From IMG/VR virus record IMGVR_UViG_2875703104_000002: a DNA stretch of 37,887 nucleotides. One strand, given 5' to 3'. The translations under genes and the position numbers were made by a program. This document shows, in pieces, positions 3,622-37,887 of this stretch (position 1 is the first letter of the stretch; every line of letters starts with the position of its first letter). Below the pieces are notes generated by a model. The model was given only the letters and a program-made list of their open reading frames with translations, did no database searches and had not been told where the DNA came from. This DNA comes from a virus (Duplodnaviria; Heunggongvirae; Uroviricota; Caudoviricetes).

Positions 3622-6266
3622 TTACACCTGTGACACGTTGTACCACGTTCCGTTAATTAACTTTTGTATTGGTCTGAATACTGCCGGATCGTCGCCATCA
3701 ACTTCGCCGACAATGCCAAGCCCGGTAATTACATGGCCTGATTTCTCATACATCACGCCTTTTTGCATGGTCTGAACAACACGTGTGCCAAGTCGGACAT
3801 CCCTCACGTATCGGCCATCAAAATTGCCGTAATCCGAGGGGTTAACGCGCCCCGTAATATTTACGGTTTTATTACTCTGAATGCTGCCGGAAACAAAGCG
3901 CATAACATGGACGTTATTAGCATAAACATCCAGATTACCATCACCATTTTGTTTAAAGCCCGTGTCATTATCACCCAAAACAATCGAATTACCGCCAAGA
4001 GCACTGGATGTTCCTATACCCAGAGCACCATTCAATTGACCACCAGATAACGGCAGTGCACCGACATCTCCCGCTGTAGGTTTTCGCGTTGTGGTATAAA
4101 ACTCAGACCAGTCAGCCTCGAATCCGTAACCGTCACGAGCAGAACGATAAAAAATACCACCGTTCTTATAATTAACGCGAAACTGGGCGGCGGGACAACT
4201 TCCTTCACCGATATTAAAATGAAGAATTAACGTTGATGCCCCACCAATATTTGCGTTATAGGCTCCGCTACTCCAGTTCCATCCAACGGCTTTATCATTC
4301 GCAACGGTGTCTCCTGTTTTTCCTGAAGCAAATGCACCAATATTTTTCGGCGTCAGGTTAATATCTGATGTTCCATCAAACGAAACGTTATTAATTTTAT
4401 TCCTGAAGCAAATGCACCAATATTTTTCGGCGTCAGGTTAATATCTGATGTTCCATCAAACGAAACGTTATTAATTTTACGGGCTGTTTTCAGCTTTGTT
4501 GCTGTCGCCGCATTGCCGGACAGTTCACCAGAAAGGCCAGCACTGAATGCCTGTTTCGCGCCCCATGTCTGGGCTTCGTCAATGATTGGTACTCGTCTTG
4601 TTGTGATCGTGCGGCTTCCCGGATTTCCTGAAATGCGCACCATAAAAAAGCGGTAGTTGGCTTTACTTACAGTGCTGCGCCATACATGCATTGAGCGCCC
4701 CGTACCGGAATCATCACTCGGACCAACTGCGATGTTTATCAGGTTGCCATCAATGACGCCCCAGTCCATACCGTCGGGAATATTGGTCATATTATCCAGC
4801 CGAACGGTTATCAGACTGCCCGGCACAAAATCGTAGGTCTGCCAGTCCAGACTGGATAGTTTTGCCACTGCGCCACCGATGCCCAGATTCAGGGGAAGTG
4901 AATAAGATGTGTAAACTTCCCGCCATTCGCTCCATGAGCTGCCGGTAAAAACGCGCTCAAACGTGCGACCTTTAAGGGTTGTACCTGTTCCGGCAGTTGT
5001 ATAACGCTGCCATACGTTAACACCATCAAAGCGCCTCAACACTTCCAGAATACCGAGGACTGTCACGCCGTTTCCGTCCAGTATTGGACCGTTGGTTGCT
5101 TTACCTGTAACGCTGTAAATACCTGGTGAAGTCACATCATTCAAATCCCCGTCGTAATAACGACTCTCTGACTGATGACCGACTCTTAACCACGGTTCCC
5201 ACTGTGGGTTCTCTGCATTCCATGTAGCAGAAAGGCAGCGAACATATACGTTCCCACGGCGGGTCGTATAGCGTTGCGTGCGTGAGTACCCACCACCCTC
5301 AAGAACTTCAAGGAGTCCCTGACCATAACTTCCTTCTTCCGGATAGTTGCGGTCAAATGAAGCGATAGAGCCACTACTGTTTCGCCATAAACCAAGATGC
5401 TCTGCGCCTCCTAGCGTGTTCAGGTCAATAGCTGTGCTCAGGGGGCGTGTTGCAGACTGAATCTGACGCCAGTAGCTCCACGGACCGTCTGAGCCATTCC
5501 AGGTGCCAGAAAGATTACGCATATAAACATTGCCAGTTCTGGTGGTATAACGCTGCATTCCGGAAAAATTACCGCCATTGAAGACCTCAAGAACACCGAC
5601 TGCACCGTCTTCAGGGAAATTTTTCTCCAGTGTTGCGTTGGAGGATGTGGATTTATACCAGACACCCACATAAGCCTTAACTGGACCAAATGTATTGATA
5701 TCAGCATCAACCGGCATTTCGCCGTTGTTTTTCATAAACGTCAGGCTGGTAACGCCAACATTGTCCAGAAAAGCTGATTTATCCTGGATATCTGCACCAT
5801 TCTGATTTTTCGCCAGACGTGAATTTGCGTTGTCATTTGCTGCCTTGACCGCTTTTGGCGTTGCGGCGAGTGCTTCGGATGTGCTGTTGGTAGCACTACT
5901 TAGCTGAACCAGCCCCTTTTTGCTCACGCTGGCATCATAAATACCCAGATTTTCACGTGCTGTGCGCTGTGCTGATGCCCCGGCAGTTTTTATTTCGCTG
6001 AGGTTATTTTTTATCAGCAGCGCGTTCTTGTTCATGATGGCTTTAATGGACAGTGCAAGCTGGTTTAATTTTGTTTTATCCGGTTGAATACCGGCTTCTT
6101 CCAGCGTGTTTAATAACTCCGCCTGCACAATATTAAACCAGTCCATGCCGGGCCATGTGATAACATTATTCCCGTCACCTTCTGAAAACCAGCGAACGAT
6201 AGCACTACGCTGGGCGGATACGGGCGGCATGACGGTTACGCCGCTGTCGTTATCAATATAAAACAT
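3622..6266 (-). pseudogene. S: Tail fibre S, mosaic and frameshifted by an 80-bp tandem duplication
   Basis: The first ~165 aa match the recalled Mu S constant part (MFYIDNDSGVTVMPPVSAQRSAIVRWF...). The ORF stops at 4353 after 15 out-of-frame codons. The region 4352-3622 is open in another frame and encodes a typical fibre distal end (...GNFDGRYVRDVRLGTRVVQ...INGTWYNVSQV). Removing one 80-bp copy gives a single 854-codon ORF. Confidence 0.9.
4320..4479. repeat. Perfect 80-bp head-to-tail tandem duplication inside the fibre gene
   Basis: 4320-4399 and 4400-4479 are identical at 80/80 positions by direct comparison of the printed sequence. Confidence 0.97.
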
Positions 6267-11520: not shown

Positions 11521-14007
11521 TTACCAACCTGTAATGTAGTTATCGCCCGCGTAAATATTCAGCCCCATACCATCCTCGGTGACGCGGGAACTGGTCAGAC
11601 GTAACCCCTCGCCGAGTTCGACGCGCAACGAGGCTTCCGCATTGACTTTTTGTTCCTGCGGTTCCTTATCCGTGGCCGTCCATTTCTGATACAGGTCGGT
11701 TACAAAACCGCCCAGATACTCCCCGGCGACACTGCCCAGCGTGGCACCGGCAACCGTACCCAGCGGTCCGGCAAGGCTGCCAACGGCACCGCCGAGCCAT
11801 GCACCGGCTGTACTGCCAATTGCGCCTGCTTTTTCATGGGTTGACGCCTGTTCATCCATCAGGACGGGGGCAAGCTGGAGTGCCCCCATTACCGGGCCAC
11901 CCAGACGTGACAGGGCACGACCGGCACCTTTCCCCATCCAGCCCAGCGCCCCGGCACCTTTTGTCACAACCCGACCGATCGCACTGCCTGCAAGTTTGTT
12001 TCCGATACCGGAAAACCACCCGCCAACGGCACGCCCGGCATCAGCCAGCTTTCCGACCGTTCCCGTAACCAGTTGCCCGGCAGCACTGCCTGCAAGCCTG
12101 CTCAGAAGACCGGATTTACCGGGCAAAGGCTGTGGCGCAGGGCGTGGTATTACCGGCACGCCCGGAGATGGCACGGGCTGCCTGTTTCCGGCACCGGAAA
12201 GCAGTCTGCTGACAGTACGCCCGGCATCCGCCAGCGTTCCTGCCGCTCCCGTAACCTGCTGCGCGGCAGCGCTGCCTGCCAGCTTGCCCGGAAGACCGGA
12301 TTTAGCGGGCAAAGGGCGTGGCGCGGGGCGTGGTATTACCGGCACGCCCGGAGATGGCGCGGGCTGCCTGTTTCCGGCACCGGAAAGCAGTCTGCTGACA
12401 GTACGCCCGGCATGCGCCAGCGTTCCTGCCGCTCCCGTCACCTGCTGCATGGCAGCGCTGCCTGCAAGCCTGCCCGGAAGACCGGATTTACCGGGTAAAG
12501 GTCGTGGCGCGGGGCGTGCTGCTGCCGGAACGCTGGGTGGGGGTAATGGTGCAGGCCGTGCTGTTACCGGTACGCCGGGTGGGGGTAATGCCAGTACAGG
12601 GCGTGGTGCAGGTAATGCCAGCGGCTGTGGCCCGGACAGCAATAACGGCTGGCGGGGTAACAGCGTGGGCATTCTTCCGCCGCTCCGTACGCGACGACCG
12701 CCGCCACTCCCGTAGCCACCAAATCCACGGGGCCAGTTGATGACAAACACACGCTGAATGCCGATACCCTGCAACAGCGTCTCAGACGTCATGGCATCCG
12801 GGACCGGCAGGCCTGCCTGCCCACGTTTGCGGTTTCGCATCCAGCGCCACATACGACGCCCGGTTTTAAACGGATAACTGGCAACCTGCCATGAGGGTTT
12901 TGCCACGGCCCAGCCTGCTCTCAGGGCTTTATTGGCAAGCCAGACAGACACCAGAACAGCAGCCAGTTTTTTCAGGCTGACAATATTCTGGTCAACCCAT
13001 GCCAGCGCATCTTTACCCGGTTTCAGCCAGCGCCATAATTCCTGCGCCGCGATTTTTACCGTTCTGAACGTGGTCAGAAATTTCTGACCAATGTTTTCTG
13101 CCAGTGCGTCAAGTTCCCCGGATTTATCCGCCATGTCGTGCCAGTTAAGCACCCGGCGCATCTCGTTCTTGATTTCTTCAAAGGGGCCGCTGTTTGCCAC
13201 CTTTATGCGAAATTCAAGCAGGTTGGCTTCCATCTGTGCGAACATCCCGTCCCAGGAGTTCATCGCACTGGCTTGTGCACCTTTTGACTGTTCTGACAGC
13301 GTTCTGAATACCGTCAGAATGGATTTCATGCCCAGCTTGCCCTTTGTACCCAGATCACGGATTTTTTTAACGTCCGTTCCCGTTGCATCCGCCAGCGCCT
13401 GATAAACATTGATACCGTAACCGGTCAGCAGGTTGGCATCCGCCGCCGTGATTTGCTGGCGGGCAAACATCTGTTTCAGTTGCAGTGAGGCACCCTGTGC
13501 AGTGGGTAAATCCCAGCCGTGCATGGCCCCCTGATCCTGCAACATGGTGATGAACTGTTTCGTCTGTTCATCCGTCATGCCGAAGCCTTTCGACGAACGG
13601 ATCTCATCCAGAACACCACTCAGCCCCCACGTGGTGTCCTTCGCGTTCTGCTTCGCCCAGGCCATCATAGCCTGCGCTCTGACCTTATCGCCGTGATACA
13701 GCGAGTTCATAGCGATGATCTGCTGCTCACGCTGGGCGGCTGCACCAATAAACAGTTTATTGGCGGTGTAACCCACGCCAGCGATACCCAGCGCCCCGGC
13801 TGACAGCATTCGGAATGTACGGGTTGACAGAGAACCCATTCTGTCAATTGCACCAGAAACGCGCACAACCTCCATACGCAGGGCTCGCAGGGAACTCTGC
13901 CCACTACGGGACAGGGCGTTTATCTGGCTCGAATACTGGCGGGAACGCCGGGAAAGATTGCCATTAAGATCAATAATGACAGACGCCTTTAAGCGTTTCC
14001 CGGTCAT
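11521..14007 (-). CDS. Tail tape-measure protein (gp42) with internal tandem repeats
   Basis: 828 aa located between the tail chaperone and N. It has a helical N-terminal half, a central hydrophobic segment, and a Gly/Ala/Pro-rich repetitive C-terminal half. Confidence 0.9.
11930..12481. repeat. In-frame 186-bp (62-codon) tandem repeat in the tape-measure gene
   Basis: Copies at 12110-12295 and 12296-12481 differ at about 11 positions by eye. A diverged third copy extends to about 11930. The protein unit is [58 protein letters not shown]. Confidence 0.9.
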
Positions 14008-22066: not shown

Positions 22067-23585
22067 CCAGACGCCCCCATATATCGGCAACAAAAATGGC
22101 ACGGGTCAGCATGTCGATAAGTTCTGCATCATCCATCTGCGGATATAATGAAGCGGCTTTGTTCATGGCGGCTTCCGGGCCATCTTTCAGCACAGAAAAA
22201 ATGACGGGTTTCAGCAGGGGATCAACCGAACGCTGCCAGTCTTCCGGTGAGACGCCCATCCGGTCGATATCATCCTCCTGCGGGATATCTTCAGCGGATA
22301 ATGCAGCCTCTTTCTGCGGACCGTTATCCATGACGACCGGTTGAGCAGTAAACACGGCTTCATCACCGACCGGCTGCGGAATATGGAGTTTTTCCTGTAT
22401 CCAGGAGACGGGAATACGCATTCCCGCCGCCAGTTTCGGAATGGCGTCAGACAGTGCCGTAATATCACCCGCTTCGCTGGTATCAAATACAATGCCCGGC
22501 AGGCGGTTAATATCAATGGTGCTGTCACTGTTCAGTGCCAGCAGGGGATAAATCAGGTCACGGTTAATACTGCGGGCAAGCTGGCCCACATCCGCGTTAC
22601 GGATTTCCCGGCGAACCTCATCATGCACTTCACCCAGCGACCGTGCACCTTTATCGCCAGCCTCTGTGGTCAGGGTGCCGCCCAGAATGGCTTTTGAAAT
22701 CGCTTTTTCTGCCCAGCCAATCATCGCCATAAAGGGGTCTGACTGACCATCTGCAGCGCTCTGAAAATCCAGCGTCATCCCCATCGGAATAATGCCACCG
22801 GCACGTCGCCCGATATCCATCACAGCCTGCATCAGCGTGGCTTTCTCACGGTTCGTGGAGCCGGTCGGATATTTACCGACGCGCATGGGAAGTCCGTAAA
22901 TTTCCAGGAACTCTGCAAAATCACGCACGGAATAGTTTTTAAAAATAAAAGGCCAGATAAGCGTGCGCACAAGGCCATTGGTGCCGACATATCCGGTGCG
23001 GGATTTGGCCCGGTGCATAAACCAGCCGAACGGTTGCAGCTCCAGCCCGTGATAAGACGCATCACGCAGGCGTAATTCGTTCAGATTGTCGGGGTTCGCG
23101 CAGAACAGCGCCGGATCGCGATGATGCAGCGCCACCGGCACGCGCATTTTCCCCAGCCACCCCCATTCAATCTCCTGCATGGAATAGCCCTTGAGAATGG
23201 CATCACCGGCATCAAACAGGGCATCTTCAAACCACGCCGCATCATGCAGATATTCATTCAGCATGTCGGCGTCTTTTTTCTCCTGTGCGCTGGCATCACG
23301 TGCCGGAGCGATGCGCCATTCCAGCGCCTGAATGGCAAGGCGGCGCTTGCTCAGTTCGGAAAAAAGGTGGGTGTCCTTTTCTTCCATATCAAAGGCCAGG
23401 TCAGCCTGTGCGGTCAAATCACCGCGTTCGGCATCACGCAGCATCTGCGCGGCCCGGTTCGGCGTCACACCACTGGAAGGATGCTCCTGCGTGCGCTTCA
23501 TGACCATTGCCAGCTCATCGCTGCGGGTCTGCATTTCATCGTCAAAATCAAACGGCTGCCCGGAAATATCCAGAATACGGCCCAT
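22047..23585 (-). CDS. H: Portal protein gp29
   Basis: 512 aa. Its start abuts the terminase stop. Recognised as the Mu portal. Confidence 0.9.
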   Translation of the reverse strand: MGRILDISGQPFDFDDEMQTRSDELAMVMKRTQEHPSSGVTPNRAAQMLRDAERGDLTAQADLAFDMEEKDTHLFSELSKRRLAIQALEWRIAPARDASAQEKKDADMLNEYLHDAAWFEDALFDAGDAILKGYSMQEIEWGWLGKMRVPVALHHRDPALFCANPDNLNELRLRDASYHGLELQPFGWFMHRAKSRTGYVGTNGLVRTLIWPFIFKNYSVRDFAEFLEIYGLPMRVGKYPTGSTNREKATLMQAVMDIGRRAGGIIPMGMTLDFQSAADGQSDPFMAMIGWAEKAISKAILGGTLTTEAGDKGARSLGEVHDEVRREIRNADVGQLARSINRDLIYPLLALNSDSTIDINRLPGIVFDTSEAGDITALSDAIPKLAAGMRIPVSWIQEKLHIPQPVGDEAVFTAQPVVMDNGPQKEAALSAEDIPQEDDIDRMGVSPEDWQRSVDPLLKPVIFSVLKDGPEAAMNKAASLYPQMDDAELIDMLTRAIFVADIWGRLDAAADH

Positions 23586-25306
23586 TACCAGCCCCCTCGT
23601 TCAAACTGGTGATAATCATCAAAATCATCGTTATCAACATCATCACCACGGTGGCGTGGTGGCAGCGCCTGTATGCTGTCCTCGTCGATAACAAAACCAT
23701 TCATATAAGACGCCCTGACAGCCATACAGAGCGCCACGGCAAAGTCGCCATGTCGTCGGCCTTTACCGCCTTCATCTTTTGTGCGCCCCTTATCAATCTG
23801 CGGAATACCTTTGTCCACCTTGATGTGGAGCAGGTCATCAAGTGTGGTCTGGTGCCGGGCAATCGTGATGTTCTGCGCTTCAAACTCGCCTTTCAGTTTC
23901 GGCATCCACTCCTGATACCAGGATGCGGTCAGATTCACACAGTCGATCATCTCCGGGCCATAAATCAGACGGGCGGCTTCTGCCAGATAACCGCCGTTAC
24001 CGGTGGCATCAAATGCAGCGCCGGTAAAACGGGGCAAACGGGACAGAATGAATAAAAGGATTTGTCGCTGCTGGTCATAGGTCACATTACGCAGCTCCAC
24101 GCGGAAACATTCGCGTTTGCGTAAGTCAGGAGTGATGGCAAGCGGAACAAACACCGTAAGGTCACCACGGCGTGCAAAGTCTTCGCCCAGTACGTGTTTA
24201 TTGAGCGGCGACAGCGCATCGAGCAACGGGAGCAGCTCCTGTTCACACCAGTCCTGAACGATGCCGTGGCGCATTTGTGGTGTCAGCGATTCAAAATCGT
24301 CCGGGGCTTCAAAACGCAGAATCGGGATATCCCGCGCTGGCGTCATGGCGGCTTCAATCAGCACGCGTGACAGATAAGCGCCCCCGGATTTTTTAGGAAT
24401 GCAGCCGTATTCCTCGTCGGCACTCTCTTTATTCGGCGCATTCCGGTACAGGCCATCACGCCAGGCTTTTTCCGCTTCCGGCGACCACGGCTGATTCGTG
24501 ACGTAACAGATACGTCGGTACAACCCGTCAGCGATGGCATCATCCAGCGTGATGCGGTGAACGCTGTAATCCTTGCGCCCCTCGCGCGCATCCTGAATGT
24601 ACTGGTTAAACAGGTTATCGACGCCGTTATGTGTCGATATGATCCGCACGCGGGCACCCCACATGGTGAGAGCAAAAGCCGCTTTCAGCAGTTCGTCCAG
24701 GGCTTCATGAAATGCCGCCTCATCAATCACCACGTCCCCCTGCAAACCACGCAGGTTAGACGGACGGCTTGACAGCGCCTGCACCTTAAATCCGCTGTTA
24801 GGGAAACGGATCATATAAGTGAGGATTTCTTCTTTTTTGTCGCTGTCCCAGAAGGTCTGCTCCCATACGTCAGCCTTTGCCAGTTGGTTAAAGGCGCGGG
24901 CAAACAGGGCACAGGCGGCAATGTATTCCAGCGCCATTTCCTGACGGGAACCCACATAAAAAACGTTGCGACCGCCACGGCGACGCGGCTTTGCTGCCGT
25001 CATGACATTGCGGCCCGCTTCGGCCCATGTCAGACCGGTACGACGGGATTTTTCAGCAATACAAATCTGGCTTTCATCCTCAAACCAGCGGCGCTGATAG
25101 CCCAGAAAAACCGGTTCATTAGATGGCTGGGCGTTAGTGATGTCTGTAACGATCTCGACACCAAGTTTGGTTGCTTCTTCCTGAAGATCAATCTGACGGG
25201 GTTCACTTGACGGAATCAGTTTTTTGCCCCGGCTATTTTTTTCATACCCCATTATTTTTTCAGCCATAATACTTCGGTTTTCTTTAAATACCTGAGGGAA
25301 CGTCAT
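23585..25306 (-). CDS. Terminase large subunit gp28
   Basis: 573-aa ORF. The Walker-like/nuclease organisation and the position upstream of the portal fit TerL. The start is ambiguous (ATG at 25306 or at 25267, MAEKIMGYEK...), and neither has a strong SD. Confidence 0.88.
   Translation of the reverse strand: MTFPQVFKENRSIMAEKIMGYEKNSRGKKLIPSSEPRQIDLQEEATKLGVEIVTDITNAQPSNEPVFLGYQRRWFEDESQICIAEKSRRTGLTWAEAGRNVMTAAKPRRRGGRNVFYVGSRQEMALEYIAACALFARAFNQLAKADVWEQTFWDSDKKEEILTYMIRFPNSGFKVQALSSRPSNLRGLQGDVVIDEAAFHEALDELLKAAFALTMWGARVRIISTHNGVDNLFNQYIQDAREGRKDYSVHRITLDDAIADGLYRRICYVTNQPWSPEAEKAWRDGLYRNAPNKESADEEYGCIPKKSGGAYLSRVLIEAAMTPARDIPILRFEAPDDFESLTPQMRHGIVQDWCEQELLPLLDALSPLNKHVLGEDFARRGDLTVFVPLAITPDLRKRECFRVELRNVTYDQQRQILLFILSRLPRFTGAAFDATGNGGYLAEAARLIYGPEMIDCVNLTASWYQEWMPKLKGEFEAQNITIARHQTTLDDLLHIKVDKGIPQIDKGRTKDEGGKGRRHGDFAVALCMAVRASYMNGFVIDEDSIQALPPRHRGDDVDNDDFDDYHQFERGGW
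25241..25299 (+). promoter_or_regulatory. Candidate sigma70 promoter and SD for the opposite-strand orphan ORF
   Basis: TTCATA (25241-25246), an 18-nt spacer, then CATAAT (25265-25270). GAGGGA (25294-25299) lies 5 nt before the ATG at 25305. These signals sit inside the 5' end of the terminase ORF. Confidence 0.4.
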
Positions 25307-25793
25307 GTCACCAAAAGCAATAAAACTACTTGAAATATTTTGTGAAACAGAATTAAAGCAATCTATGGATACTGTTCAATTTGTCTCAATAAACGGATGG
25401 GAAACACTTCAGCGCCTTTGGCCCCTGAATGAACGATTCACACCACGCATAGAGCAAATCAGAACGATTAGCTACAGAAAGCAATTTGAAAAAGCCGCAG
25501 ATAACGCCATTGAGGATTTTCTGATGAAGGATGATGACTGGTCAGAAATTCCATTAGTTGTCTGGCGTGTTCTTCTGGAACGCCATAATCAAGCAACGAT
25601 TCTCTGCGTAACTAATGCACTCGCCAATAACACCGAACTTATGCACATCCCTGTCGGACTTTCTCAGTCGGCACAAACAAAATTTGCAGTAGCTTATTTG
25701 TATTACGCAATGAAGCTCCCATATAAAGTGCTCGGTGAATCACAGCTTGACATTGAATCACCGTTTGAGTATCTGAACACCCGGCTACAGTAA
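25305..25793 (+). CDS. Orphan 162-aa hypothetical protein on the opposite strand (moron between the terminase genes)
   Basis: A 489-nt ORF fills an AT-rich insert. Its first 60 nt are 27% GC, against 57% for 25861-25920. It has an SD and a downstream hairpin with a T-run. I see no TM segment and recognise no motif. Confidence 0.65.
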   Translation: MSPKAIKLLEIFCETELKQSMDTVQFVSINGWETLQRLWPLNERFTPRIEQIRTISYRKQFEKAADNAIEDFLMKDDDWSEIPLVVWRVLLERHNQATILCVTNALANNTELMHIPVGLSQSAQTKFAVAYLYYAMKLPYKVLGESQLDIESPFEYLNTRLQ

Positions 25794-25806
25794 AAGCCTT
25801 TCGATG

Positions 25807-25839
25807 GGCGCTGATTAGCAGCGCCTTGTAATCATTTTT
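25807..25839 (+). terminator. Orientation-specific terminator after the orphan ORF
   Basis: GGCGCTG-ATTAG-CAGCGCC is followed by TTGTAATCATTTTT on the plus strand. No T-run follows it on the minus (late-operon) strand. Confidence 0.5.
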
Positions 25840-25852
25840 CATAACGTAACTC

Positions 25853-26443
25853 CTACGCTTTACCCAGCAACACATCACGGATACGCTGCTCCAGTTCTTC
25901 GCTGATACCATCCTGCCCGCGCAGTTCTTCACTGACGGCGTTTGCCGCTTCTTCTGCGAATGCCTGGCGGATTTCTTTCTCGCGCCGGTGGCTGGACATT
26001 GCCGTGGATTCCAGACGCTGTGCCGCCAGCATGGCATTTTTCAGCAGGTCAATATCCACGTCAGATTCCGGGTTTTCGATTTGCCGCATCATGGCCTTAA
26101 AAAGCTGGCTGCGGGCCATTTCCAGAATCAGCTTTGTGGTTTCTCCCATTGGCTTGTCGCCAAGTTCTGCGGTCAGTGCTGACGTCATTTCACGCATCTG
26201 TCGCAGGTTATGGCCTACCTGTTCGACGTTCGTCGCGTAACGGTTCAGACCGGAACGGGAGAGTTTCATCTCATCCGGCAGGCCAGCGTCTTCAATCAGT
26301 GCGTTAATTTCTTCCAGAATGCGGGCCTGTGGGATCGCTTTATCACGCAGCATTTCATGCAGCGTTTTACGTACGTTTTCTGGCAGTAAATCCACTTTTG
26401 AAGCCCGGCCCCGTGTTTTCCTGTCCATCACGCCTCCTGTCAT
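25853..26443 (-). CDS. Terminase small subunit-like protein gp27
   Basis: 196 aa with a basic N-terminus (DRKTRGRASKVDLLPENVRK). Position matches Mu gp27. Confidence 0.8.
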   Translation of the reverse strand: MTGGVMDRKTRGRASKVDLLPENVRKTLHEMLRDKAIPQARILEEINALIEDAGLPDEMKLSRSGLNRYATNVEQVGHNLRQMREMTSALTAELGDKPMGETTKLILEMARSQLFKAMMRQIENPESDVDIDLLKNAMLAAQRLESTAMSSHRREKEIRQAFAEEAANAVSEELRGQDGISEELEQRIRDVLLGKA

Positions 26444-30511: not shown

Positions 30512-30613
30512 GATCGTACCTCCGGAAAGAGGCGGTGCTGCAACACCGCCTGAATTTACACATCAATCAGAGTGGATTTTATGGAAAATAATGTTTTAGT
30601 TTCATTATTCATA

Positions 30614-33205: not shown

Positions 33206-33225
33206 TGTCAGCGTTCCTTTGCGAA

Positions 33226-33495
33226 TTAATGTTTAACCGCATTCACCGGATGTGGTACTAAATCACATTCAGCCTCCATACCCACTTTCTTCATAGTGGT
33301 CAGCATCTCATCTTTGGCCTTTTTAATAATTTCAGGAGCCATAGTCAGGACGATATTTGCCAGTAAATCATGAGGCCCGGTATTTTCCGTTGGCGAGATA
33401 TCTGCAAGACATGCTTTTGCATCCAGAACTTCTCTGCGCCCATTGCAACCTTCACTACTTTCCAGCCATGTAAACTCAAAGATAACTTTTGCCAT
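33226..33495 (-). CDS. Early-region hypothetical protein (89 aa)
   Basis: ORF with AAGGAGACGC before the ATG. Confidence 0.65.
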   Translation of the reverse strand: MAKVIFEFTWLESSEGCNGRREVLDAKACLADISPTENTGPHDLLANIVLTMAPEIIKKAKDEMLTTMKKVGMEAECDLVPHPVNAVKH

Positions 33496-34959: not shown

Positions 34960-36948
34960 TTAAATGGCTTTTTTACGTCTGTTCTGTTCCAGAATATCCA
35001 GCGAATGATTCAGATATTCATCACGCTCAGTTTCGTATTCATCATCACGCTCCTGATTCTTCACCCGTTCCATATTACCGGAAGGCCGGAAAATGCCGAC
35101 AATTCGTGATTCTGGTGCTTCAGGTTCGGCTATCTGCGGCAGCAGCTCTGCCACTTCCAGTGCATCCATTTGTTTCTGTGCCTTAATCGCTGCTTTCGTC
35201 GCAGATTTCAGTTGTTTCTGGCGGCGACGATATTCACGGCCTGCCGCAGCATCATTAAACGCAACAGGTGCCAGACATTCCGCTTCACAGATAAACCGAC
35301 CGTCCAGGGTGTAGCAATAAACCGTGCTGTGTAACTGCTGTGGATCAAATCTGACCACAACTTTTTTCACTCCGGCATTCATTAACGCCATGTTGTAATA
35401 AACGTTTTTCGCACCTTTAAGGGAGCCGCCAACTTTAAGCGCGAACTCGCCTTTACGTGAAACGTTCACCGCCTCGGCAGGCAGTAACAGCATCCGTTTT
35501 TGCTCTTCGGTAGGCTTACGCACAATCGTTCTGGCGTATTCACGCTCAAAAACGTCATCAAACGAAAGTTTGCCTCCGCACATTTCTGTTTCACGGCCTG
35601 TTCTGGCATTGAACATCGCCACACCTTCGGCAAGGGTTTTCAGAAACAGCTCTGCATCAACAGCGCGGTCGCCATAGTTATCAGGTTTTGCCTGCGGATT
35701 AGGCCCCGTATATGCGCCAGCCAGTGCCGGATGCTTATCAACGTATTCCTCAAGCCCACCAACACCGAAAGCACGTTCAACAGGTTTTGCCTGGCCCCAG
35801 CCTTTACCAGCAACAACGCTTGTCCAGTGCATTTTCGCCCCCATCAGTAAAAACAGTCCCTTTGGGTCGTCCTCTTTTACCTTAAAGCGGTAGCGATTGG
35901 GCGCGCCTCCCGTCAGCCATTTATTCGCAGCACCACGGGTGTTATCAATGGTGATGTGAAAATCCTCCGGGATACCGTAGCGAGTCACAACATCCATGAA
36001 CGAGAGGCGAATTGAATCAATGTTCTCGCTCACATCGCAGCGCCAGCCCAGAATTTTTCGGGTTTTCACATCCTGCCAGAACCATGTTTTCGGGCGGATC
36101 ACATCACCGTTAAACCAGCGTACAAAGACGTTATGCAGATAACCGTCGCCGTTGATCCACTGCATGGCGTCCAGGTGTTCCACAGTTCGCTGCTGTGCCG
36201 GTATCAGATGCATCAGTGCATGTTCACCTTCACGGCAGGCAACAACCATTGCCTCGTCCAGTTGCTGAATCCGGCGAAAGGCCGTGGCACGGGAGGGAAT
36301 ACTCCAGCCATGCTCGCGGGCTGCCAGTTCCAGACGCTCATAACATTTGCGGAAGGCGGGTTTTTCCGGTCGCAGATAATCTGCAATCAGAAACTGCCAG
36401 GCATCCTCGTCAAATTCACTTTTGTGAACATTGCGACGGGATGCTCCACGTCCATCAACAAGTGCAGCCGCCCAGTCAGGCTTCGCAAGCTTCTGTACCT
36501 GGTAATACTTGTCCCGCAAAGTGGATGCGCTGACCTGGTAATGCCCTGCAACGGTCGCAAAAGCCGTTTTCGTTGAAATCCCCTGGTTCAGCATTTCGTC
36601 TGCAGCCTGAACAGCAGGCAACCATTTTTCAGCAAGTCTGCGCTGGGAATCGCTGGCGTTATCCCATTTGCTCCACAGTGCCTCACGATCATAATCATGG
36701 GCTTCCAGCGTGGGGCGGGCGATTTCAAAATACCCCTGACTTGTTTCAATTCTCCCTTGTTGCAACAGAATTTCAGCACGTAATGCGACAGGGAATGATT
36801 TGATATTGAATTCAAATGATACACCTTTAGTCCCTGCAACCTGCCTGAACTCCCAGCCTTCTCTTTGTGCCTTACGTGTAATGTTAGTGGCTTGCTTTGG
36901 TAAACCTGCCAAACCGAGCAACTCTTTTGCTGTATACCATTCTTTCAT
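34960..36948 (-). CDS. A: DDE transposase MuA (D108-type N-terminal enhancer-binding domain)
   Basis: 662 aa. From about residue 65 onward it is recognised as near-identical to MuA. The first ~60 aa differ from Mu and resemble the N-terminus of the repressor in this window. Confidence 0.95.
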
Positions 36949-36955
36949 AGCGCAC

Positions 36956-37177
36956 CTAGTATCGAGACGGCCAAATATCTTGCGGTGTCATTCCCAGTGC
37001 ATCTGCAATGATTTTCTCCGCTTTCGGATATCTCTTATCCAAAGCATTTTTTAATGTTGAAGACGAAAGATGATTAGATCTTCCCAATTCAGCTAGTGAC
37101 ATATTGCGTTTTCGTAGCTCTGCAACGATGTCAGCTCTGTGCCAATCTTGGCGGTTAGTTCTTTTATTCATATGCAT
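36956..37177 (-). CDS. ner: Ner (Cro-like early repressor), D108 type
   Basis: 73 aa with the core ...[23 protein letters not shown]...IWPSRY. The length and the adjacent operator match recalled D108 Ner rather than Mu Ner. Confidence 0.9.
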
Positions 37178-37201
37178 TTCATGTAATCCTTTCAGATTCC
37201 C

Positions 37202-37243
37202 CCGTGAGCTACGCTATAAAGTAGCTCACGGCATATCGTGCAA
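37202..37243 (-). promoter_or_regulatory. Ner operator (perfect 11-bp inverted repeat, 8-bp spacer) overlapping the candidate early promoter Pe
   Basis: CCGTGAGCTAC (37202-37212), GCTATAAA, GTAGCTCACGG (37221-37231). On the minus strand, TTGCAC (37238-37243), a 17-nt spacer, then TTTATA (37215-37220). Confidence 0.75.
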
Positions 37244-37362
37244 TGTAGTGTGGAATCATTTTTAAATCAATAGTGATTTGAAAGGATTTATCATGATTTC
37301 ATATAACAGCATGATTTTTATATGAATTTATTTTGTCTCTATTGAAATCACTAGGATTTTAA
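37244..37362. promoter_or_regulatory. Repressor operator / transposition-enhancer region and the c promoter
   Basis: An AT-rich divergent control region carries six TGATT/AATCA motifs between 37254 and 37352. AGGA lies 7 nt before the c ATG. Individual operators and the IHF site are not resolved. Confidence 0.6.
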
Positions 37363-37887
37363 ATGATGTCTTTTGAAATCAAAGAATGGTTTAATGCGAA
37401 AGAGCTGGAAGGGATGCCTGGTGTACCAAAGTTGGCGACTAACATTACCAGGAAAGCTGTGGCGGAAGATTGGGTAAAACGTCAGCGTCACGGTGGGAAA
37501 GGTGTCGCTTATGAGTATCACATCAACAGTCTGCCAGAAGAAACACGCAGGGCCATTAAAGGAGCCTCACTTTCTGATAAACCAGTGCATACATCAATCG
37601 TCCATACAGTTGATGAGAGGCTAATTTATGCAATGAGTTTCTTAACACCAGATGAGCAGGCCGCAGCAGTGGAGATCATTCGTGTAGCAGGGATTAAAGG
37701 ACTTATGCCTACAATTGTCAGTAAAGATAAGGCATTAGAGGCATTAGGGATTACTGTGGAGCAACAGAAAACCCTGCAAACTCTTCAGGCATTACCACCG
37801 GAAAAAGTGAGAGAGATTTTGTCTCAGTATGAAGGCAAAGAACATAATTTCCCTGTAAGAGAAAACGATGTAAAGAAAGCTGTATAA
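37363..37887 (+). CDS. c: Lysogenic repressor c (D108 type)
   Basis: 174 aa, divergent from ner. Its N-terminal DNA-binding domain is paralogous to the A N-terminus. The C-terminal ...VKKAV resembles the recalled Mu/D108 repressor tail. Confidence 0.9.
   Translation: MMSFEIKEWFNAKELEGMPGVPKLATNITRKAVAEDWVKRQRHGGKGVAYEYHINSLPEETRRAIKGASLSDKPVHTSIVHTVDERLIYAMSFLTPDEQAAAVEIIRVAGIKGLMPTIVSKDKALEALGITVEQQKTLQTLQALPPEKVREILSQYEGKEHNFPVRENDVKKAV

Follow-up and report, generated by a model that had tools for sequence, protein, structure and literature searches.

A convergent pair of antisense-overlapping genes in a mosaic cassette between the terminase genes of a Mu-type prophage

The junction between the small-terminase-like gene gp27 and the large terminase gene of a Mu-type prophage (IMG/VR record IMGVR_UViG_2875703104_000002; the whole stretch of 37,887 nucleotides analysed here is called the window) carries two genes, ORF162 and sORF67, which are convergent and overlap at their 3′ ends. 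Because the final 50 codons of ORF162 double as coding sequence of sORF67 on the other strand, the insert forms a two-gene module with an antisense overlap. We give about an even chance to a model in which this is an accessory module, with ORF162 as an exclusion-type protein expressed in the lysogen and sORF67 as its off-switch or antidote. The features of the junction are collected in Table 1.

Table 1. Features at the gp27-terminase junction of the window
Feature	Coordinates	Strand	Basis or remark
Large terminase, Mu gp28 homologue	23585..25267	-	95% identical from residue 24
Mosaic cassette	25166..25837	.	blastn against the Mu genome, identity profile
Putative sigma70 promoter of ORF162, TTCATA-18-CATAAT	25241..25270	+	scan, conservation
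GAGGGA Shine-Dalgarno of ORF162	25294..25299	+	5 nt before ATG
ORF162 ('FAM'), 162 aa	25305..25793	+	ORF call, homologues, substitution pattern, family search
Dual-coding stretch, 155 nt	25639..25793	both strands	ORF162 codons 112-162, sORF67 codons 18-67
sORF67, 67 aa, unannotated late-strand gene	25639..25842	-	open frame, start, Shine-Dalgarno, homologues
Conserved hairpin	25807..25825	.	7-8 bp stem, 5-nt loop, covariation
GGAG Shine-Dalgarno of sORF67	25850..25853	-	7 nt before ATG
gp27, small-terminase-like, DUF3486 / PF11985, upstream late-operon neighbour	25853..26443	-	PF11985 E = 1e-52

A mosaic cassette in place of a 7-bp junction

On both sides of a 672-bp non-Mu segment, the window matches Mu at 97-98% identity; this segment is the sole internal one of the late region without a blastn match to Mu. 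This cassette stands in place of Mu 12904-12973 and occupies the gp27/gp28 junction, a gap of 7 bp in Mu itself; the identity to Mu, 0.93-1.0 up to ~25150-25165, falls to 0.5-0.6 beyond. Its GC content is 41%, with 26.7% in the first 60 nt of ORF162 and 41.1% over the whole gene, compared to 53.8% in gp27, 53-54% in the flanks and 52.7% in the window, and GC3 is 35% versus 58% in the flanks. A mosaic origin of the cassette is shown by these data, and the base composition and the 7-bp Mu junction agree with the initial annotation of an AT-rich foreign cassette between the terminase genes. Mu, D108, and SfMu all lack ORF162. The suggested comparison of the junction among Mu-like phages revealed different cargo in E. 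coli A21, E. coli RM8082, and Yersinia phage Tongde, as would be expected of an insertion hotspot.

The cassette shares with phage morons its insertion between genes that are adjacent in Mu, a base composition that differs from (and a GC content lower than) that of the surrounding genome, a putative promoter of its own, and alternative cargo at the same junction in related phages. It differs from them in that it is not a single gene with promoter and terminator; it holds two genes that share 155 nt of coding sequence, one of which is wired into the late operon.

Two genes and their shared coding stretch

The plus-strand reading frame of 162 codons is present between gp27 and the large terminase gene exactly as first described. 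Its predicted product is a soluble, mostly helical protein of 18.9 kDa with a pI of 5.3, for which AlphaFold returned a confident model (pLDDT 83, pTM 0.78); together with the lack of matches in family libraries, this accords with the earlier description of a soluble helical protein without an assignable motif. Close homologues (n = 16, 99-51% identity) are nearly all 162-163 aa long, and substitutions at the three codon positions (p1/p2/p3) amount to 0.32/0.21/0.57. A search of 1.84 billion representatives placed at least 167 clusters at 50% identity in the ORF162 family, all of them in Mu-like (transposable) phages and prophages, and the label of orphan is therefore no longer appropriate. 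Full length and the p3 >> p1 > p2 pattern are retained down to ~25-30% identity in dozens of lineages. On its homologues and substitution pattern, ORF162 truly encodes a protein, as had been proposed, and is subject to purifying selection; its family is unannotated and restricted to transposable phages. None of 44 Mu-like prophages of complete E. coli genomes contains ORF162, and it was detected neither by megablast and blastn in 5,426 complete E. coli genomes nor, using tblastn with two family members, in 50,697 phage genomes.

The initial annotation counted a single gene between the terminase genes and cited the minus-strand frame of 67 codons only as a way to refute it. This has to be revised, since a conserved 67-aa frame on the late strand overlaps the last 50 codons of ORF162 in antisense. 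Its ATG (25842-25840) lies 10 nt past the gp27 stop, the first G of its GGAG Shine-Dalgarno sequence also belongs to the gp27 stop codon TAG (25855-25853), and its own stop is at 25641-25639. The product is predicted to be a basic three-helix bundle (7.4 kDa, pI 9.7, pLDDT 78) with a GRAVY of 0.05, a maximum Kyte-Doolittle value of 0.89, and no membrane-spanning segment. The small ORF is open, with a length of 63-69 aa, wherever a close locus has an intact ORF162, and it is open too in relatives from Sulfitobacter, Azospirillum, Thiobacillus, and Rhodocyclaceae. Over the last 48 codons of ORF162, the frame is open in 51 of 68 distinct genes, compared to 5-9 of 68 in control regions and 20.6 expected from synonymous resampling. 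An open frame with a start and an SD-like motif is found in 46 of 67 divergent loci; the other two phases give 1 and 0. The N-terminus, which is outside ORF162, carries a conserved H..AF(S/T)VA motif. In addition, homologues of 56-63 aa follow gp27 in Mu-like prophages and in phage Tongde, all without ORF162; junctions with the small ORF alone are found in Tongde and in 10 complete E. coli genomes. In one relative (L019) the small ORF is open next to a frameshifted ORF162. Of the 10 E. coli genomes that carry sORF67, 9 have it unannotated, and gene callers hardly ever predict it (12 proteins among 5.8 billion). Collectively, this conservation shows sORF67 to be a real gene of the late operon. 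The possibility raised earlier, that the 67-aa minus-strand frame might be conserved instead of ORF162, thus held for the conservation of the small frame and failed for the replacement, as ORF162 is conserved as well.

In the overlap, the third codon positions of ORF162 are the second positions of sORF67, and the variation of the former is about halved there in two independent sequence sets. In the first set, third-position variability differs between overlap and non-overlap at p = 5e-9, and synonymous codon differences at identical residues fall from 54% outside the overlap to 27% inside (Fisher p = 2e-6). The result was replicated in 46 other family members, in which third-position entropy is 1.71 outside versus 1.35 inside (p = 2.5e-8), with p1 and p2 unchanged across the overlap. 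These codon-position statistics show that the dual-coding overlap is under selection. Each start codon lies outside the other gene, so that either gene could be knocked out separately.

The suppression of synonymous change spans ~40 codons, far past the 19-nt hairpin, which is itself wholly outside ORF162. The latter structure (8-bp centroid stem, -14.4 kcal/mol) lies 13 nt past the ORF162 stop, within codons 6-12 of sORF67. The hairpin and its T-run were originally taken to be a private terminator of ORF162. The hairpin is indeed present and is conserved with covariation, but the terminator role is not supported: it is located inside sORF67 and kept in loci without ORF162, the T-run starts 8 nt past the stem and is not conserved, and a scan calls no terminator. 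No Rfam family matched 25000-26000.

Searches for a known function returned little. ORF162 and sORF67 gave nothing past threshold in Pfam, PHROGs, NCBIfam, and PADLOC, nor did 57 diverse family members in Pfam and PHROGs or 16 small ORFs in Pfam, and no toxin or antitoxin family was matched in Pfam, PADLOC, and NCBIfam. PADLOC 2.0 gave no significant defence match, its only hit being Csx15 (E = 0.008, 14 bits, 36 residues), and Foldseek against BFVD found nothing with E < 0.4. No relative of the ORF162 family with a solved structure was found in the PDB, where ORF162 has a weak fold match to HI1480 (PDB 1mw5), a hypothetical protein of an H. influenzae Mu-like prophage.

Expression signals and genomic positions

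The proposed sigma70-like promoter and the GAGGGA sequence are both found at the sites first reported. Terminase codons 1 to ~35 (25166-25267) are within the cassette and contain the putative promoter, the -10 hexamer of which includes the reverse complement of the terminase start codon. A scan of 1.3 kb gave 2 promoter-like sites versus 2.1 expected by chance, and the -35 element is weak; a match alone is thus not evidence for a promoter. However, CATAAT is retained in 12 of 14 related loci, some with an unrelated adjoining gene, and this conservation makes a promoter for ORF162 plausible. Loci of the ner/A type have a conserved leader in common. The antisense overlap of the ORF162 and terminase ATGs, also claimed at first, needs a terminase start at 25306, which is not conserved. 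We rejected this start, as relatives and gene callers use the ATG at 25267-25265 with a conserved Shine-Dalgarno sequence; the divergent starts are then ~37 nt apart. A 68-aa ORF beside the cassette in another relative (L014) was considered as a terminase N-terminus and ruled out by BLASTP.

The two-gene module occupies at least three genome positions, moving as a unit. The family gene is antisense between a small-terminase-like gene and TerL in ~16 loci, even where DUF1804 and an unrelated TerL replace gp27 and TerL, and it is antisense between ner and the transposase gene in ~29. In ~20 related loci it is apparently co-directional with the late genes, as in F -> FAM -> I. The small ORF is apparently oppositely oriented in these, which led us to reject the idea that it always runs with the lytic operon. 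An orientation antisense to the lytic operon is thus not universal for the family, and a lysogen-only model may fail for the family as a whole. The ner gene of the window (36956-37177) has the transposase gene as its immediate neighbour, and ORF162 does not follow ner.

Proposed role, alternatives and related systems

Our best guess is that ORF162 would be an accessory or exclusion-type protein that the lysogen expresses and that late read-through silences and perhaps also neutralises. Its direction is opposite to that of the late operon, and its transcription most likely starts at a weak sigma70 promoter of its own inside the terminase 5′ codons; with such a promoter, it could be made while the late operon is silent, i.e., in the lysogen. 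Being on the opposite strand to the late operon, ORF162 would have lytic transcripts antisense to it, and the late operon presumably reads through the cassette region, as we assume from the Mu Plys operon. At the onset of late transcription, polymerase and late mRNA would run antisense through ORF162, and sORF67 would be translated from the late, Plys-type mRNA immediately after gp27. The antisense read-through and the output of sORF67 would thereby make the expression of the two proteins mutually exclusive. This would suit an ORF162 that is useful to the lysogen and harmful or pointless in the lytic growth of the phage itself. Its likeliest activity may be of the exclusion or abortive-infection type against superinfecting phages, and sORF67 would then be the phage's own off-switch or antidote. 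Promoter activity, lysogen expression, antagonism of the two proteins, and the exclusion role are the parts of this model that we infer.

Two simpler readings of the locus retain only one selected gene. If the cassette were a one-gene moron, the 67-aa frame would be a shadow ORF kept open by ORF162 codon choice and the hairpin. The antisense frame of any conserved gene is automatically conserved, the hairpin adds nucleotide-level constraint on part of the region, and gene callers almost never call the small ORF, all of which fit this reading. However, codon choice predicts 20.6 open frames rather than the 51 seen, the start and SD are concentrated in one phase (46 of 67 loci versus 0-1), the ~40 codons of synonymous suppression exceed the hairpin, and the small ORF is intact where ORF162 is absent or frameshifted, making a shadow ORF very improbable. 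The reverse reading, in which sORF67 is the selected gene and ORF162 a decaying passenger, could draw on the sORF-only junctions and on the frameshifted ORF162 of L019, but it was already disfavoured and is barely credible given the full-length ORF162 family members and their codon-position pattern across dozens of lineages.

The remaining alternatives accept both genes and assign them another purpose. A toxin-antitoxin or addiction-like pair, in which one protein would neutralise the toxicity of the other under reciprocal antisense control, would serve abortive infection or stabilisation rather than entry exclusion. A compact module that travels as a unit, the pairing, in the enteric clade, of an acidic 19-kDa protein and a basic one of 7 kDa, and a 3′-3′ antisense overlap, which resembles type I toxin-antitoxin loci, are compatible with it. 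Such a pair is nevertheless improbable, as no toxin or antitoxin model is matched, sORF67 is unlike a hydrophobic type I toxin in its maximum Kyte-Doolittle value, the convergent genes do not allow type II-style co-transcription, and sORF-only loci indicate that the small protein is tolerated alone. Moreover, Mu-type prophages are not known to excise and would gain little from stabilisation. Somewhat less improbable, though still unlikely, is a role in phage development, with the pair assisting or regulating transposition, packaging, or the lysis-lysogeny decision rather than acting on competitors. The restriction of the family to transposable phages and its adjacency to terminase genes or ner/transposase could equally fit such a role, to which the ~20 apparently co-directional loci and the weak fold match to HI1480, a protein of a Mu-like prophage, may be added. 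In contrast, ORF162 is dispensable, as its absence from Mu, D108, SfMu, and all 44 E. coli prophages attests, and its variable position and foreign composition are those expected of accessory cargo.

The exclusion-type model has parallels in two known systems. In Fc02, a B3-like transposable Pseudomonas phage, the antisense-overlapping genes olg1 and gene 10 both exclude superinfecting phages, one strand being read in the lysogen and the other in the lytic operon from ner to gene 10 (PMC9936078). Common to both systems are opposite-strand overlapping coding genes in a transposable phage, and many ORF162 relatives are found in the equivalent ner-to-transposase position. In Fc02 (olg1/olg2-gene 10), however, it is the lytic strand that carries the long gene, and the overlap is complete, whereas in the present pair the long gene is on the anti-lytic strand and overlaps its partner only at the 3′ ends; furthermore, a location directly after ner is seen only in ~29 distant ORF162 relatives. 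Homology was compared through B3ORF16 (163 aa, after ner in B3), assumed to be the gene 10 equivalent, and was rejected at an hhalign probability of 0.2% against the family profile; the tblastn search of phage genomes with family members likewise gave no match.

In the sieB/esc/sas system of P22, a lytic operon contains a prophage-expressed gene in antisense orientation; an antisense RNA results from lytic transcription, and through a second product the phage evades its own exclusion (PMC12197685). ORF162 is likewise antisense within the lytic operon, on the strand opposite to gp27, sORF67, and TerL. Esc, however, is made in frame from within sieB, and the antisense RNA there is non-coding, whereas the antisense partner of ORF162 is a separate conserved protein; an exclusion role of ORF162 is a proposal. 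No SieB homology of ORF162 was found in Pfam, PHROG, NCBIfam, PDB, and BFVD. Ranade and Poteete reportedly treated sieB-esc and the sas antisense RNA of P22 and lambda in 1993.

A broader proposal, which we hold tentatively at somewhat less than even chances, is that ORF162 and sORF67 are an ancient, obligately coupled pair, extending from enterobacterial to alpha- and beta-proteobacterial transposable phages, that would form a hitherto unrecognised bistable lysogeny/lysis switch, or a system of exclusion plus antidote, particular to Mu-like phages. Coding genes that overlap in antisense, in bacteria as in phages, tend to be young, confined to a lineage, and contested. A pair conserved in dozens of very divergent phages, with selection signatures in both frames, offers a testable model of how such overlaps originate and are maintained, and, if it is indeed ancient and coupled, would rank with the best-supported examples of purifying selection acting over the long term on both strands of a gene in a bacterial virus. 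The analysis defines two protein families, both unannotated and confined to transposable phages, one of them invisible to gene callers (12 database entries), and annotation pipelines overlook sORF67 in nearly all genomes. The arrangement points to a built-in mutual exclusion of a prophage function and a lytic-cycle function, and, if the exclusion and antidote idea is true, the pair would constitute a new prophage-encoded defence together with its own escape factor.

The non-Mu segment between the terminase genes

The prophage matches phage Mu at 97-98% identity over nearly its full length and is inverted relative to the Mu reference, the Mu plus strand corresponding to the window minus strand. 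The Mu right end (Mu 36717) is found at window 1857, so that 1-1856 can be assigned to host flank. In the late region, only one internal segment, 25166-25837 (672 bp), is without a Mu match; it stands in place of Mu 12904-12973, which comprises the 7-bp gp27/gp28 junction and the first gp28 codons. This cassette separates the small-terminase-like gene gp27 from the large terminase gene (TerL, the homologue of Mu gp28) and carries a 162-aa opposite-strand frame, ORF162, whose GC content is 26.7% over the first 60 nt and 41.1% overall, compared to 53.8% for gp27 and 52.7% for the whole window. The initial annotation had described this AT-rich ORF together with a sigma70-like TTCATA-18-CATAAT, a GAGGGA ribosome site, and a hairpin at 25807-25825. 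The ORF with its coordinates and low GC, and all three further elements, were found in the window, which confirms that observation.

Features of the cassette and the immunity region
Feature	Coordinates	Strand	Description
ORF162	25305-25793	+	162 aa; between gp27 and large terminase
sORF67	25842-25639	-	67 codons; ATG at 25842, directly after gp27 stop
gp27	25853-26443	-	PF11985, E = 1e-52
ner-like gene	36956-37177	-	immunity region; differs from Mu ner
repressor-like ORF	37363-37887	+	174 aa; runs to window edge

Other departures from Mu lie elsewhere in the window. The immunity region (36761-37887) has no match to Mu 1-1518, suggesting that the prophage is probably heteroimmune to Mu. At 30594/30595, the Mu coordinates skip from 8149 to 7672, and the absent ~476 bp correspond to the 3′ part of gp14 and to gp15, Mu's own opposite-strand early gene. 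Short non-Mu segments are present at 33221-33475, in the early region around Mu gp6/gp7, and at 3676-4056 and 4337-5787, in the invertible G-segment/tail-fibre region. A 186-bp tandem repeat (2.6 copies, 91% matches) occupies 12031-12518 within the tape-measure gene region (Mu gp42), where the Mu 25559-25727 unit occurs more than once by BLAST.

The ORF162 family and its genomic positions

ORF162 is a real gene. Its substitutions show a coding pattern (p1/p2/p3 = 0.32/0.21/0.57), and the description as an orphan does not hold: among 5.8 billion proteins, a word-indexed search returned 16 homologues of 99-51% identity, nearly all of 162-163 aa, from Escherichia, Salmonella, Aeromonas, and one Caudoviricetes MAG, and among 1.84 billion cluster representatives, a profile search gave at least 167 matches, mostly of about 160 aa. 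The product is acidic (pI 5.3) and without a membrane segment, and its AlphaFold model is confident and mainly helical (pLDDT 83, pTM 0.78), the tail being disordered past about residue 137. That it has no assignable motif was borne out, since neither ORF162 nor 57 diverse family members matched Pfam, PHROG, NCBIfam, or PADLOC, and ORF162 has no sequence relative in the PDB and no structural relative in BFVD. The gene is absent from 50,697 deposited phage genomes (tblastn with two family members) and from 5,426 complete E. coli genomes.

About 110 family loci were fetched, and Mu-like genes were marked in them by tblastn. In about 16, the family gene lies antisense between a small-terminase-like gene and TerL as in the window, a position it also holds in phages that have DUF1804 and an unrelated TerL in their place (L014, L018-L024); about 29 loci have it, again antisense, flanked by ner and the transposase gene. 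A further 20 or so seem, by crude ORF calling, to carry it co-directionally with the late genes, such as at a site bounded by F and protease I or, elsewhere, a few kb ahead of gp25-gp28. These several positions make the family mobile cargo of transposable phages and not a terminase-specific feature. The gp27/gp28 junction itself is a hotspot, and the comparison of this junction proposed in the initial annotation did show different cargo in Mu-like relatives: Mu, D108, and SfMu carry no insert, whereas inserts of 274 bp, 613 bp (three small ORFs), and 416 bp are present in E. coli A21 and eight similar strains, E. coli RM8082, and Yersinia phage Tongde, respectively. In RM8082 (L004, 2435-3039), one 83-aa opposite-strand ORF has an ATG overlapping the terminase ATG. 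The RM8082 and Tongde (L002, 2658-2852) inserts also contain a 64-65 aa late-strand ORF (MAEKTKHKTSTELAM...) after the small ORF; in A21, the 64-aa ORF is shrunk to a stub.

From residue 24 on, the window terminase shares 95% identity with Mu gp28, and its diverged N-terminal stretch is part of the cassette. Relatives and gene callers place the terminase start at the ATG equivalent to 25267. This ATG has a conserved Shine-Dalgarno upstream and lies about 37 nt from the ORF162 ATG; the proposed antisense overlap of the ORF162 ATG with a terminase ATG at 25306 is not conserved. A promoter scan found 2 sites, compared to 2.1 in shuffled sequence, so the match by itself says little; however, CATAAT is kept in 12 of 14 related loci, including loci whose adjoining gene is unrelated to the Mu terminase, which argues for a DNA-level function of this putative -10 hexamer. 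In the DUF1804/alternative-TerL lineage, L014 has a separate 68-aa ORF (5757-5963) that starts at a conserved TCAGCCATAAT element next to the family gene, the TerL start lying further on; this ORF was considered as a counterpart of the window terminase N-terminus and rejected, the two being unrelated. In the ner/transposase-type loci L030, L037, L041, L051, L060, and L088, the family gene is preceded at about 15-45 nt by a conserved leader similar to CCAAACAAACCGA. The leader comes after a TAnnnT hexamer and points to a transcript start or regulatory site that these loci share.

A second gene and a dual-coding overlap

The cassette had been read as containing one ORF, the 67-aa minus-strand frame being named only as a possible refutation; that frame is a second, conserved gene on the late strand, sORF67. 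There the gp27 stop (TAG, 25855-25853) is followed by GGAG, 7 nt, and the sORF67 ATG. All close relatives whose ORF162 is intact have the frame open, at 63-69 aa. Relatives from Sulfitobacter, Azospirillum, Thiobacillus, and Rhodocyclaceae likewise keep this phase open, with an upstream ATG and a clearly recognisable version of the protein, the common pattern being ...H..AF(S/T)VA...P...L.E.R..ID.LLETGASF.EAK.AL..L..... Across the last 48 ORF162 codons, this phase is open in 51 of 68 distinct full-length family genes, compared to 20.6 expected from resampling synonymous ORF162 codons and 5-9 for three control stretches within the same genes. In 46 of 67 loci, the frame is open and is accompanied by a start codon and an SD-like motif lying 25-85 nt past the ORF162 stop (other phases, 1 and 0). 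The product is a predicted three-helix bundle (pLDDT 78), with a basic pI (9.7) in the enteric clade. Its family has 12 entries in the protein collection and is almost never annotated; 9 of 10 complete E. coli genomes carrying the gene list no feature there. The small gene has an existence of its own: homologous 56-63 aa copies follow gp27 directly in Mu-like prophages and phage Tongde, all without ORF162, and in the viral contig L019 (3001-3485), an 84-aa small ORF is still open although the ORF162 homologue is frameshifted (135 aa, then out of frame).

ORF162 and sORF67 are convergent and have 155 nt in common, with ORF162 third positions falling on sORF67 second positions; accordingly, third-position divergence of ORF162 is 0.57 in codons 1-105 but 0.29 in codons 124-162. 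At identical residues, the share of synonymous codon differences is 54% outside the overlap and 27% inside it (Fisher p = 2e-6, four roughly independent pairs), and third-position variability differs between the overlap and the rest (Mann-Whitney p = 5e-9). A set of 46 family members that occupy other genome positions replicated this: third-position entropy is 1.71 outside and 1.35 inside (p = 2.5e-8), and the first and second positions show no change. The overlapped ORF162 residues are also kept in the wider family, including M136, L138, and the MKLP motif, which together with the constrained third positions indicates constraint on both frames. Long-term selection on both strands is well supported.

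The hairpin lies 13 nt past the ORF162 stop, within sORF67 codons 6-12. Across 14 loci, 94% of cells in the stem are paired, compensatory double changes occur in 4 of 7 pairs (one at the cost of a small-ORF amino-acid change), and the covariation score is 0.375 compared to 0.226 for shuffles (0/500 reach 0.375); it is a genuine conserved structure. The T-run on the ORF162 strand attributed to it is, however, not conserved, and the hairpin is retained in loci without ORF162. It may terminate the plus-strand transcript, modulate how the late-strand message is translated or how stable it is, or serve both purposes.

Proposed antisense coupling and candidate functions

sORF67 is wired into the late operon, which ORF162 faces, and the conserved -10 hexamer of ORF162 sits within the first codons of the neighbouring gene. 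ORF162 could thus be expressed while the late operon is off, i.e., in the lysogen. Upon induction, late transcription would collide with the ORF162 message and be antisense to it while giving rise to sORF67, and the two products would be mutually exclusive in time. The P22 sieB/esc/sas system is an analogue supporting such antisense coupling (PMC12197685). In the transposable Pseudomonas phage Fc02, antisense-overlapping genes adjoin ner, with olg1 on the lysogenic and gene 10 on the lytic strand, and both exclude superinfecting phages (PMC9936078). The likeness of these systems to ORF162/sORF67 is one of analogy, not homology. By this analogy, an exclusion- or abortive-type prophage function of ORF162 with a self-encoded off-switch or antidote is favoured. 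B3ORF16, a 163-aa gene after ner in B3 that we take to be the gene 10 equivalent, was considered as a family relative and rejected as unrelated.

Of the other explanations, a function in the development of the phage itself is the least unlikely, favoured by the co-directional loci and by the confinement of the family to transposable phages, and a toxin-antitoxin-like pair is slightly less probable again. A single-gene moron with sORF67 as a shadow ORF is improbable beside the conserved start and SD-like motif of the small gene. That only the small gene matters is very improbable, ORF162 itself evolving as a coding gene.

The initial reading of a real and interesting cassette holds, but described only half of it. 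The segment is a prophage accessory cassette, putatively regulated by antisense coupling, and its unusual, well-supported trait is long-term two-strand selection on a common 155-nt coding stretch.
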